DNA of 64,000 nucleotides from Octopus vulgaris. Taxonomy: Eukaryota. This document shows, piece by piece, positions 13,518-61,217 of this stretch. The position numbers were made by a program, and so were the translations under genes. How positions within the stretch are numbered: position 1 is the stretch's first letter; every line of letters starts with the position of its first letter. The stretch is from the NCBI GenBank assembly GCA_951406725.2, contig OX597830.1:50158001-50222000 (forward strand). Reading direction: 5' to 3'. Below the pieces are notes generated by a model. It saw only the letters and a list, made by a program, of their open reading frames with translations, searched no databases and had not been told where the DNA came from.

Positions 13518-13745
13518 CTTTATTTAAAGCAGCAGAAAATTCAACAAAACCTGTAACTCTGAGTTTCCCGTTGCCGATCATCGGACAGTTTTTGCCAGCA
13601 AAAACTGTCTGATGAACGGCAACGGGAAACTCAGAGTTACAGGTTTTGTTGAATTTTCTGCTGCTTTAAATAAAGCATATTACACTACCACTGGTATTTG
13701 AGTACTCTTTTTCCACCTTGTTTCACATTTATGTGTTTACTCCGG
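13518..13745 (+). mobile_element. Penelope-like element terminal fragment with inverted 5' arm, inserted in (TA)n
   Basis: 78-bp arms 13518-13595 / 13598-13675 (2 mismatches), right-side extension to 13745, (TA)n on both sides, contains a hammerhead motif. Confidence 0.65.
13596..13651 (+). ncRNA. Minimal type-I hammerhead ribozyme motif
   Basis: Stem I cagcaaaa-a-ctgt / acag-g-ttttgttg; core CTGATGA (13609-13615); stem II a-CG-GCAA-CG-g; GAA; stem III ACTC-a-GAGT; cleavage triplet GUU at 13636-13638. Confidence 0.65.
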
Positions 13746-14189
13746 TATATATATATATATATATATGTATATATACAACGGGCTTCTTTCAGTTTCCATC
13801 TACCAAATCCACTCACAAGGCTTTGGTCAGCCCAAGACTATAGTAGAAAACACTTGCCCAAGGTGCCATGCAGTGGGACTGAACCTGGAACCATGCGTTT
13901 AGTAAGCATGGTACTTACCATACAGCCACTCCTACGCCTAAGGATGTGAAGTTGAACACACAACTAGGGGCTTATATTCCTGGTGTGCTAGGTATGTGCG
14001 AGGTATGCACTGCACACCTATCAAGAATGGCAAATTCATTATAAATATCAACCTTACTCATTAATTTAATCACAAATCTTAATGGAAAACATTTTGTAAG
14101 AGCCCTGCATAAAATCTGGTGGCATTGGGTGTGACAATACACTCAATACAACAACCACCATACACCACTGATCGCAACCCATGACTTCA

Positions 14190-14387
14190 CTGGCAATAGT
14201 AATATATTGGCAATGTAATAACATATTGGCAAAGCAGAACCATATTGGGAATATAGTACTTTGTTGGTTATATAGAACCATATCGATAATAAAGTTCTAT
14301 ATTGGCATATAGTAACATATTGGTAGTATGGTACCATATCAATAACATGGGACATTATCAGCAGTGTAGTACCATATCAGCAATGTT
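14190..14387. repeat. Degenerate minisatellite of about 19 bp (accatattggcaatatagt-like)
   Basis: Periodic atattgg/atatc motif, about 10 copies. Confidence 0.7.
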
Positions 14388-14447
14388 CGGTCTAGGAATT
14401 GATCCCATGGTAAGTCAACATCCTAGCCACTACATTATATATATATA

Positions 14448-57700: not shown

Positions 57701-60700
57701 TACATTTTCGCTCCAGACTGAAAAAACTAACAGCACTGTATGCCTACAATCACAGCGATAGGCACCGAAAAAAGTTTCCTCATTTGAAAAATATATCGTT
57801 AGAATAATTATGTAAATCAATACAGTATTTTAGGAAAAGAAAAACAACCCTGTTTATTCAGAAAATAAAAAAGAAATTAAATGTTTATTTTCAGATCTTT
57901 GTGTTGTTTTCTGCATTTTTATGAAGTTCAACAATTCTGGGAGAATCAATATTCCCAGAATCACTGAACATCGTTGGCATCTTTTTAACAGCATTTTATC
58001 CAAAATATTGCAAATTCTCGTGATTATATGCATTTGAGTATTAATAATAAACCTGGCCAAGATTGGATTTAGCTTCTGGGATATTGGAGTGAATGCATGA
58101 TGCAAGTAGCAGAATACTGGAAGCAAGGTTGGGAGATGGTATACACTATATATATACACACACATATACATTGTCATTATCATTTAACATCTGTTGGTGT
58201 ACAAATGTGTTCATATATCTGTTTATCTTTGTGGACATGTTTGTGAGTTGGAATTGTGTTTATCAATATGTGAGTTTATGGGTATTTGTATGCATGCCAT
58301 GTGGTTGTGATCATGAGTATGTGTGTGTGTTTGTGTGTGTGTTTTTGTGCATGTGTGTATTTATGTATATTATATTATATTAGTGTGTGTTTGTATATTA
58401 GTAAGACTTGAAGAGAAGTTTTCTACCTTGCCTTTACCTCAAAGTATAGGGTTAACCATGAACATACTTATTATATATAAGTTATACATATATAAAATGT
58501 TATATGTATATATAATGTTCATTGCATTGCTTGTGTGTATATTTATCGTAAGATTGGTGGTTTTTTGAAGCTGTCGCTTTGATTTTTAGTAAGCGGTATT
58601 TTTACCCTTCTTTTCTTCAATTAGTTTATATTGTACCATCTCCCACAAGTCTTGCTAGCCACTTCATTATTACTGCTTATAACAGTAATAATACTCAAAA
58701 TAAGCAACAAGTATATCCAAGGTAGAGTAGTATAATTGTTTCATGCTACTTCATTTTATTAAACACTGTAAGTATTACATCAGTTTTAAAATGTCGAGCA
58801 ATCTTCAGCCACTTATAGAATTTTCCAATTAAACGGACAATACACATTCTTATCCCTATTTCATTTGCCAACATTATAAAGAGGGTAGATAGGCAAATAT
58901 AGATAGATGAATAGATAGATACATGTACATACATACATGCATGTATATACACATCTATATGTATGACATTGTTATATGTATTCAAAGCACATCAAACACA
59001 CACACACACAGAGCTTGTATATATACCATGGAAATAGTACGAAATACTTGAAAATAAATCCATAATTTGTTGGGGTGTGGTTAGGGTCTTATAGGATTGC
59101 TGTTAAGGTAATTGGGTAGAAAATATCGTTAAGGAATGTGAAACCATAAAGAAATGGGAAATTGAGAAAGTTAGGGAAACGCACAGAAGTCAAGGGAAGA
59201 TAGAATAAAAGAGAAATGAAAGAATAAAATGAGATTTAGAACAATGATAATGGAAGAATAAAAGATTTATATAAGTACTAAAACTGAGGGACATGTCTCT
59301 TAGCTTTCTCTTGCTTCAGTCATTGGAATACGGCCATGCTGGGGCTTGACTTGAAGGGTTTAGTTGAACAAAGAGAACCCTGTGGTTATTCTTTTTAAAA
59401 CCTGGCTCTTATTCTATCAGTCTTTTTTGCCAAACCACTAAGTTAGAGGGATGTAAACAAACCAACGCCAGTTGTCAAGTGATGGTTGAGGACAAACACA
59501 AACACACACACATACACACACACATATACATGACAGGCTTCTTTCAGTTTCTGTCGTCCACCAAATCCACTCATAAGGCTTTGGGTGGCCCAGGGCTATA
59601 GTAGAAGGCACTTGTCCAAGTTACCATGCCATGGGGCTGAACCCAGAACCCTGTGGTCAGAAAGAAAAAGTTCTTACAACACATCCACACTTGCATTCTG
59701 AGAAGGAAAATATAGAAAAATCTTTAGAATGTTGCCATATTCTGAACAAACAAATAATTGTAAAACATTAAACTGACAAAAGTAAAAAATTAATTAGAAA
59801 AAATATTGACATGTATATTGGATAGTGATAAGGGATAGATGAAATAACTGTAGGATATTGACATATAATTAATAATATATTACTAACGATGACAGGTTTG
59901 TAATGAGTTCTTTCCTACAAAATGAAATTTAATTCGGTTTCTGTTGTGTATATTTCCATTATGGAGTAGAGATCCTGTTTCTCAGAGATCCAGGAATAGC
60001 TATGATTAATATTTTGTTTACAGTTTTTGCACCCTGTCCAATTTCTCATATGGTTTTGACATTTGTATGGATATTTTTTAACTTCCAAATATATTTTCAT
60101 AAAGACGTTTCTACTCGTCCAGTGAGCCCTATATTGGTTATACATAATTTATTATCTTTCATCATTTCTCTTACTTGTTTCAGTCACTTAACTGCAACCA
60201 TGCTTGGGCATTGCTTTGAATGGTTTTTTTTTGCACACATCAAACCCAGAATTTATTGTCTGTTTTTTGAAGTTTGGCACTTATTCCATCAGTTTCTTTT
60301 TTCTGAATCTATAAGTTACAGGGATGTAAAAAAACCCAGCACAGGTTATCAAGTAGTGGGAATACAGACACAAACACAAAAACACACATACATATATGCA
60401 TATATATTTATTCTAAGATGTTAAATGCTATGGCTGGTGATAGATCTTGACTTCCTAAAAAATATATGCCAAAAAGAAGCACACGCTAAACCATTAGCGC
60501 AGTAATATTTTGGTATTTTGTTTGTCTTTACATTCTGAGTTCAAATTCCACCGAGGTTGACTTTGCGTTTCATCCTCTTAGGGGTCAATAAATTAAGTAC
60601 CAGTTGCGTACTGGGTCAATTTAATCGACTTGCCCTCTCCCAAAAATTTCGGGCCTTGCCCCTAGCGTAGAAAAGAATATATGAACTACTGATGATATAT

Positions 60701-60840
60701 ATACATATATATATATATATACACACACACACATATACATATATATATATATGATTTTGATTTTGATTTTTCCAGTTTCAGCTAATGAGCTGTGGCCATG
60801 CTGGGGCACCGCCATTTTGCATACATTTATATATATATAT

Positions 60841-61217
60841 GAGTTAGGTACAAAAAGTTCAGGGTGAATACTTGATAACTGTAAGCACCTGTATATGCCA
60901 GCTAGTGGTGTAGGTGATAGGATATATTTATCAAAAGAAAAACTGGATGCAAAGGATTTTGCGGTACATATGTTTTTGGCTTTATTGAACAATTTATATC
61001 AATGCATAATTGATATAACATGTAGGTCAACAGCCTTCTTCAGCCGCGTACAATTACCACACCAAAGACATGTATTATATTATAGCAGGTTTGAGAAAAA
61101 GTTTGGGAAAAAAATGAGTTTCATTGGGAAGGTAAATCCTTATAGTCGTATATGGCATAGCAAGACACCAAAACAAAACGTCCATACCGTTTTTTCACTC
61201 GATAAAGATTCTTTATC
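60841..61217 (-). mobile_element. Insert in (TA)n carrying a degenerate hammerhead with long stem II (Penelope-like)
   Basis: Minus strand: gcgg-CTGAAGA-a-ggct...(10-bp perfect hairpin ttatatcaat/attgatataa)...agcc-a-AAA-ACATATGT-A-ccgc at 60961-61047. Confidence 0.5.

Follow-up and report, generated by a model that had tools for sequence, protein, structure and literature searches.

In this work we analysed a window of 64 kb from the genome of Octopus vulgaris (contig OX597830.1, positions 50,158,001 to 50,222,000, within a 2.8 Gb assembly of 227 contigs, GCA_951406725.2), in which a first-pass annotation had recognized hammerhead ribozymes in several inserts flanked by TA repeats. It is very probable that these inserts are 5'-truncated and mutated 3' ends of distinct Penelope-like families, namely F1 and F4 (Hydra-type), F3 (Neptune-type) and F5 (likely Hydra-type), accompanied by one likely retrozyme without long terminal repeats (non-LTR retrozyme, F2), and that the hammerheads of these particular copies are likely inactive. 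The general picture, TA-targeted Penelope-like elements with dimer-type hammerheads, one octopus family included, is already published; the window adds unlisted families and shows the density of such hammerhead fossils. Positions within hammerheads (A6, G12 etc.) follow the standard hammerhead numbering, and L numbers denote fetched loci.

Each of F1 to F5 was found to be a multicopy repeat family in the genome search. Exact patterns with fixed stems, which give lower bounds, matched genome-wide 2596 times for F1, 188 for F2, 14,215 for F3, 197 for F4 and 136 for F5, while the reversed-pattern control gave 0 for each. The first-pass annotation had considered the inserts unrelated in sequence, and this was confirmed, as no cross-insert match was better than E 0.08. 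The hammerheads were judged to be real because the family alignments show them, not the window copies: the family majority rows, the folds and the covariation in an F2-like set all give a type I hammerhead, with three stems round the core and the ends in stem I. At the family level the core is the canonical CUGANGA/GAA in F4 and F5, a known variant in F2 (U3-A8) and F1 (U4C), and non-canonical in F3. The palindromic stem III described earlier was seen in all five families. Its predicted energy was +2.1 to +6.0 kcal/mol as a monomer, if it could form at all, and -1.7 to -11.1 kcal/mol as a dimer duplex; the prediction is thus a stem III that is stable in a self-dimer and not within a monomer, which agrees with the proposed preference for dimeric folding. 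Except for F2, the inserts could be linked to GIY-YIG endonuclease or reverse transcriptase sequence upstream on the same strand, directly in F1, via sister subfamilies in F3, to the endonuclease only in F4 and at one locus in F5. The proposal of several distinct Penelope-like lineages with ribozymes and TA-abutting ends is supported by these links, F2 being instead a non-coding tandem unit. For F1 and F3 the BLAST loci did not extend upstream, and the coding part was reached through the pattern loci and a nested copy.

The F1 family is represented in the window by the following features.

13518 to 13745, plus strand: F1 insertion, the 3' end of a Hydra-type Penelope-like element with (TA)n on both sides, consisting of an inverted 5' copy (13518-13595), the end of the pseudo-long terminal repeat (pLTR; 13596-13675) and a 70-bp tail (13676-13745).
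13599 to 13648, plus strand: right-arm hammerhead, core 13609-13615, GAA 13626-13628, stem III 13629-13637, cleavage-site base 13638.
13545 to 13594, minus strand: left-arm hammerhead, lying within the inverted copy; its core, 13584-13578, has U4C.

The endonuclease was present upstream in 22 of the 24 walked F1 loci and a same-strand F1 end in 21 of the 24, the distance from the endonuclease to the F1 end being about 1.2 kb. The F1-linked protein has the LYRDD motif of the reverse transcriptase, a CxCx5C linker (its second cysteine is lost in many copies), CxxC and CxH around the C-terminal E/N, and no CCHH. The same C-terminal GIY-YIG without CCHH, the same linker and insertion into (TA)n characterize the Hydra-clade elements Hydra-1_Obim, Hydra-2_Amil and Penelope-3_HM in the paper of Craig et al. 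(2021, PMC8557442), according to which Hydra elements are almost all inserted in TA and have hammerheads with a palindromic stem III; stem II is often mismatched at its base there, the cleavage-site base is often U, and one of the listed elements is from Octopus bimaculoides. As here, the hammerhead of those elements is in sense orientation near the 3' end, and stem I of F1 is that of Hydra-2_Amil, while its stem III is that of Penelope-3_HM. There are differences as well: the F1, F4 and F5 hammerheads are distinct from the one listed for Hydra-1_Obim, F1 has U4C and F4 and F5 have a long stem II, and the 3' untranslated regions (UTRs) are long here (about 1.2 kb in F1, about 3 kb with nested repeats in F4) as against elements of less than 3 kb in PMC8557442.

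In the window, the F1 insert is a near-perfect inverted repeat, for which a single hairpin of -135 kcal/mol hiding both hammerheads is predicted, and stem II of the right arm begins with an A.G mismatch at its base. In a hand count of the first 100 of the 2596 matches, 82 had a CCGAnGA core and 6 a canonical one. The canonical U4 of the right arm likely arose by CpG decay from the family C4, since the opposite-strand CpG product (CAA) is about equally common. In most F1 copies (L001-L030, L243-L272) the sequence ends or inverts within some 15 bases upstream of the core, and short microhomologies are frequent at these points; this suggests that the hammerhead fold stalls the reverse transcriptase. 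Another family with a U4C core was noticed at L083, L137, L158, L178 and L234, where the stem II arms are as in F3 and stem I has a compensatory change; U4C thus occurs in at least two families.

The F3 family is of a different type.

48198 to 48391, plus strand: F3 insert, a 3' pLTR truncated at its 5' end, with (TA)n directly behind it; the element is a Penelope-like one of Neptune type.
48269 to 48304, plus strand: F3 minimal hammerhead, core 48273-48279, GAA 48293-48295, stem III 48296-48299.

Sister subfamilies of F3, 77-82% identical to the window copy, lie downstream of reverse transcriptase, thumb, CxxxxCxxC linker and GIY-YIG sequences. An F3-type hammerhead was situated 0.5-1.1 kb downstream of the endonuclease in 13 of the 14 loci having an endonuclease match of at least 55% identity; since F3 sequence had served to select most of them, the figure shows linkage and not frequency. 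A CX2-5CxxC linker with a C-terminal CCHH-type GIY-YIG, which marks Neptune elements, was found at L294, L203, L218 and L222; the Pfam GIY-YIG match of the F3-linked protein had E 0.009, below the cut-off. The hammerhead has a 4-bp stem I, an unpaired A at 9.1, a 4-bp stem II and no loop III. It resembles the Neptune-clade minimal hammerheads of Cervera and de la Pena (2014, PMC4209133), where minimal Penelope hammerheads and their weak dimer activity were defined, in the linker before GIY-YIG, the missing loop III, the short stem I, the unpaired base at 9.1 and the G10.1-C11.1 pair. F3 is the only truly minimal one in the window: the term had earlier been applied to all the inserts, and F4 and F5 have a long stem II.

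The F3 window copy carries the family A6U plus a private C3U, and position 6 was U in 96 of the first 100 of the 14,215 matches. Among the 89 CTGTnGA matches of the first 100, position N7 was A in 18, C in 23, G in 10 and T in 38 cases (hand count). The canonical core was found in 117 F3 matches versus the 14,215. When 12 canonical-core loci were compared by eye, five had clearly more diverged flanks and seven were like the main subfamilies; A6 is therefore likely the ancestral base of the F3 core. In the covered portion of PMC4209133, U3-A8, described from Schistosoma Penelope elements, is reported as a core variant and A6U is not mentioned, whereas A6U is present in nearly all F3 copies. No A6U Penelope hammerhead was found in the literature searched; the work of Lunse et al. 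on dimeric variants, the Terminon work and the supplements of PMC4209133 and PMC7229834, which lay outside this search, may bear on it. We would tentatively propose that F3, which has more copies than any other hammerhead family encountered in the genome, has swapped A6 for U in at least four subfamilies with the fold kept and N7 free, and has outgrown its canonical relatives about a hundredfold, so that it might represent either a natural A6U ribozyme working as a dimer or a hammerhead fold that is retained because it serves Penelope retrotransposition in a non-catalytic way.

A related explanation, which extends to F1 and deserves serious consideration although we would not favour it, is that the hammerheads of F3 (A6U) and F1 (U4C) are attenuated or non-catalytic and that it is their fold which is kept, for instance to give the reverse transcriptase a handle, or that weaker cleavage was itself favoured. 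The near fixation of U6 with N7 taking all four bases, the rarity of canonical copies, several of them with more diverged flanks, and the prevalence of CCGAnGA in F1 would fit this explanation, and in a coral Hydra element the stem I of F1 goes together with a canonical U4 (PMC8557442). The core variants U3-A8, U4C and A6C are covered in PMC3088659, where A6C has low activity and U4C lowers activity; however, U4C supports viroid infectivity and A6C still cleaves in the same source, and F1 and F3 may accordingly be slow but working ribozymes. Moreover, the conservation of the F1 and F3 stems is built into the counts, as the patterns fixed the stems; between F3 subfamilies the stems are constant, but much of the flanking sequence is equally so, and the fixation of A6U and U4C may be a founder effect of few master copies.

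The remaining two Penelope-like families and the likely retrozyme are located as follows.

60843 to 61217, minus strand: F4 insert, the 3' end of a second Hydra-type element, with the pLTR end at 60928, a tail to 60843 and (TA)n on both sides.
60961 to 61047, minus strand: F4 hammerhead, core 61043-61037, long stem II, stem III 60973-60966.
37497 to 39372, minus strand: F5 region, 1.9 kb or more from the 3' part of the fifth family, likely Hydra-type.
37585 to 37927, minus strand: split F5 hammerhead, core 37922-37916, GAA 37604-37602, stem III 37601-37594.
37640 to 37866: multicopy insertion of 227 bp inside the loop of F5 stem II, bounded by TTAA on either side and having short terminal inverted repeats.
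30167 to 30523, plus strand: F2 monomer, a nearly full unit of a 365-bp non-coding tandem repeat.
30313 to 30355, plus strand: F2 hammerhead, U3-A8 core 30319-30325, GAA 30340-30342, stem III 30343-30348.

In F4 the 5' core is canonical and the long stem II has a mismatch at its base. The window copy carries G12A at 60976, while 95 of the first 100 family matches have G12. A chain of homology through the long low-complexity 3' UTR ends at a Hydra-type endonuclease in L183, which has the same Hydra motifs as that of F1 (CxCx5C linker, no CCHH, CxxC/CxH around E/N) and 36% identity to it; in L189 the C-terminus of the endonuclease, the 3' UTR, the hammerhead and (TA)n stand together in a single copy. 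A Neptune open reading frame beside an inverted F4 copy (L153/L187) was rejected as the F4 partner, since it lies across a TA run.

The F5 site had been described as a remnant, and this description has to be replaced: the hammerhead is complete, and its halves are separated by the 227-bp insertion, which we take to be a piggyBac-like miniature inverted-repeat transposable element. The missing half was found where the fold predicts it. Of the 17 distinct F5 3' halves that were scored, 12 extend as far as a core, which lies about 90 nt upstream and is canonical in 10 copies; the window core carries G8A. A decayed Hydra-like endonuclease about 2.1 kb upstream of F5 in L317 makes it likely, as far as sequence can tell, that the family is Hydra-type. 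That the 37.6 kb motif is a chance match was considered and rejected, as it belongs to a multicopy family with a full hammerhead.

F2 has a head-to-tail junction in 20 of 30 loci, its hammerheads are 365 bp apart in three tandem pairs, and its longest frame is 69 codons. Of the first 100 matches, 90 had the U3-A8 core. A C.A mismatch in stem I, at 30351, is private to the copy in the window. No RNA record was listed as containing F2, which says nothing about its expression. When 10 F2-like hammerheads were aligned, 9 of the 13 pairs changed on both sides, U3-A8/C3-G8 included, and 93.8% of the cells pair, a higher value than in any of the 500 shuffles or of the slid controls; the stems thus covary. 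F2 is likely a non-LTR retrozyme and not a truncated Penelope end. Such retrozymes, of which the 350-390 bp mussel repeats are an example, were defined by Cervera and de la Pena (2020, PMC7229834), and retrozymes are derived from pLTRs according to bioRxiv 10.64898/2026.07.22.740005. F2 matches the mussel elements in size and layout: its non-coding tandem unit of 365 bp is within the 170-400 bp of non-LTR retrozymes, and it has a type I hammerhead with a 6-bp stem I, a 4-bp stem II and a short palindromic stem III. It differs from them in its U3-A8 core, in occurring mostly as monomers or partial dimers with inverted pieces and in its 55-bp Penelope-like tail.

The position of the inserts in TA repeats was evaluated on 30 F1, 29 F3 and 29 F4 loci; five F1 pairs are the two ends of one insertion, and the F3 and F4 loci are the best BLAST matches. 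A (TA)4 began not more than 4 bases from the 3' end in 25 of 28 ends found for F1, 19 of 24 for F3 and 19 of 27 for F4, far above the background of 2-4% of window positions, and thus the supposed enrichment of (TA)n flanks was borne out for these families. The window itself holds 129 (TA)n arrays with five or more repeats. The insertions show the habits of Penelope-like elements, that is 5' truncation, an inverted 5' copy (in 20 of 30 F1 loci) and an optional 3' tail, the tails being 55-85 bp here versus 30-40 bp in PMC8557442. It could be supposed that the (TA)n was made or extended by the element, by a telomerase-related reverse transcriptase adding TA, instead of being a pre-existing target, and in most copies the TA run does begin exactly at the 3' end or at the end of the tail. 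We regard this as rather improbable: TA is also present at the 5' junction of non-inverted, 5'-truncated F1 copies (L246, L252, L259, L270) and a single TA array can be common to different families (L021, L111), both of which are expected from targeting, and TA is treated as a target in PMC8557442. The Naiad elements, listed for Octopus in the same paper, likewise prefer (TA)n, but they have an N-terminal endonuclease and no canonical hammerhead there, while the endonucleases found here are C-terminal.

The anatomy of the inserts, the linkage, the TA adjacency, the truncation and the inversion were observed directly, and by analogy with published work the following course of events may be proposed. 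A GIY-YIG endonuclease with its cysteine linker would nick (TA)n arrays, and target-primed reverse transcription would start there from the 3' end of the RNA. The reverse transcriptase would usually stop or switch template within a few hundred bases, and what is left would be the pLTR end that bears the hammerhead, frequently together with an inverted copy and optionally with a tail. Where an element is complete and in tandem, the hammerheads of its two pLTRs would lie on one RNA, pair via the palindromic stem III and undergo slow dimeric cleavage (the dimer model is reviewed in PMC6765202), whereas solo copies would have no partner and would then decay. The expected layout of the source was seen in L199 (1945-7600; C16, about 20.835-20.840 Mb), a young Neptune-type element of another family than F3, where a 781-aa open frame with reverse transcriptase and GIY-YIG stands between two hammerhead-bearing pLTRs. 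In this family the 781-aa frame is open at many loci and an upstream open frame is also present; both pLTR hammerheads have U3-A8 and an A/U-only stem I, and the element ends at (TA)n. Tandem pLTRs round a full frame were seen only in L199, none of the fetched F1, F3, F4 and F5 copies being full-length.

Several points weigh against the proposed identity of the inserts. The endonuclease link of F3 goes through sister subfamilies, not through the subfamily of the window copy itself, and that of F5 is one locus, where about 1 kb between the endonuclease and the shared 3' UTR is unmatched by a second copy. The F1-linked protein had no Pfam match. In a looser window the TA adjacency was weaker for F2 (12 of 25 scored loci, 4 of 29 not being scored) and for F5 (4 of 9). 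In three of the ten covariation rows (L090, L186, L301) the likeness to F2 is confined to the hammerhead, and relatedness among the rows inflates the shuffle control. The clade labels are suggested by motifs rather than by a tree of reverse transcriptases, and the cleavage by these families is a prediction from sequence and fold.

According to the first-pass annotation the inserts could also place self-cleaving RNA in the introns of host transcripts. Solo copies acting as working ribozymes in host introns and affecting RNA processing are very unlikely. The cores of the F2, F4 and F5 families are, at the frequencies given above, canonical or known to be active, and intact copies elsewhere could cleave if two of them share one transcript. 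Nevertheless, every window copy has a lesion or lies buried in a long hairpin, as F1 does, and lesions are found in all five named copies; each family occurs once per orientation in the window, leaving no same-strand dimer partner; and no host exon was found in the window among frames, by Pfam or in the RNA-type contigs, which covered 2900-14400. For these reasons intronic self-cleavage is unsupported. Metazoan Penelope-like hammerheads did not cleave as monomers and were weak as dimers in PMC4209133, and Xenopus retrozymes are depleted in introns (10.64898/2026.07.22.740005). In the region 2900-14400 the contigs of four presumed-RNA runs contained repeats only, with a loose end at 6647 without a match in the window. 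A 137-codon open frame at 3729-4139 (plus strand) is of ordinary composition, matched no Pfam family and was without relatives among longer proteins; the eight other window frames gave one weak match (E 0.04), and a tblastn search of the window with Neptune and Hydra proteins found no coding remnant.

The four hammerheads annotated at the start are where they had been reported and their families support the fold, but 0 of the 4 copies pass a strict descriptor. The only strict match in the window is the F1 left arm at 13584 (minus strand), which is not significant by itself because 20 shuffled windows also gave 0-1 matches each, 3 in all. With two core mismatches allowed, the descriptor matched 16 window positions, mostly noise; a weak hammerhead-like match of this kind at 39808-39851 (plus strand), with no family match, is probably due to chance. 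No hammerhead was among the best 150 of the 323 Rfam matches of the window, those listed being microsatellite-driven noise of miRNA models. Although these descriptor counts could make all the motifs look like chance matches in AT-rich repeats, this explanation is refuted by the family alignments and is extremely improbable, as the stems are restored in the family majority rows, compensatory changes occur in the F2-like set, the missing half of F5 is at the place predicted by the fold, and the architecture is that of published Hydra hammerheads.

The earlier list had missed the F1 left arm and a sixth family.

58696 to 58819, minus strand: F6, a decayed hammerhead of a sixth family, core 58808-58802.

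The stem III palindrome of F6 is broken and no (TA)n adjoins it directly; it is 77% identical to a copy in L129 with a canonical core and a long stem II. With F6 included there are 6 hammerheads per 64 kb window, and the assumed frequency of roughly one per 15 kb is thus valid locally, while the exact matches of the five families, taken over the whole genome, add up to at least about 1 per 160 kb. A strict descriptor applied to all fetched loci gave 55 distinct hammerhead signatures in 18 clusters, 8 of them with at least 2 members, a tally that is no census as the loci were chosen via families F1 to F5. At about 44020-44330 of the window an inverted-repeat insert lies between TA arrays and has a 67-bp match to the flank of a hammerhead copy in L253; it is likely another Penelope 3' end cut short of the ribozyme. 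Inverted copies, at 13518-13675 and in many F1, F2, F4 and F5 loci, form long perfect hairpins, which, if transcribed, would be double-stranded RNA and possible substrates of adenosine-to-inosine (A-to-I) editing. A-to-I RNA editing takes place in cephalopods.

O. vulgaris Penelope-like families have been annotated in PMC13282606, whose main text does not contain the word 'ribozyme', and descriptor searches demanding CUGANGA would miss more than 99% of F3. The role of the hammerhead in endonuclease-bearing Penelope elements is called unclear in PMC8557442. The massively amplified A6U copies and their few relatives with a canonical core form a natural comparison where this role is concerned, and the reading of F3 proposed above, if true, would offer a direct test of what Penelope hammerheads do.

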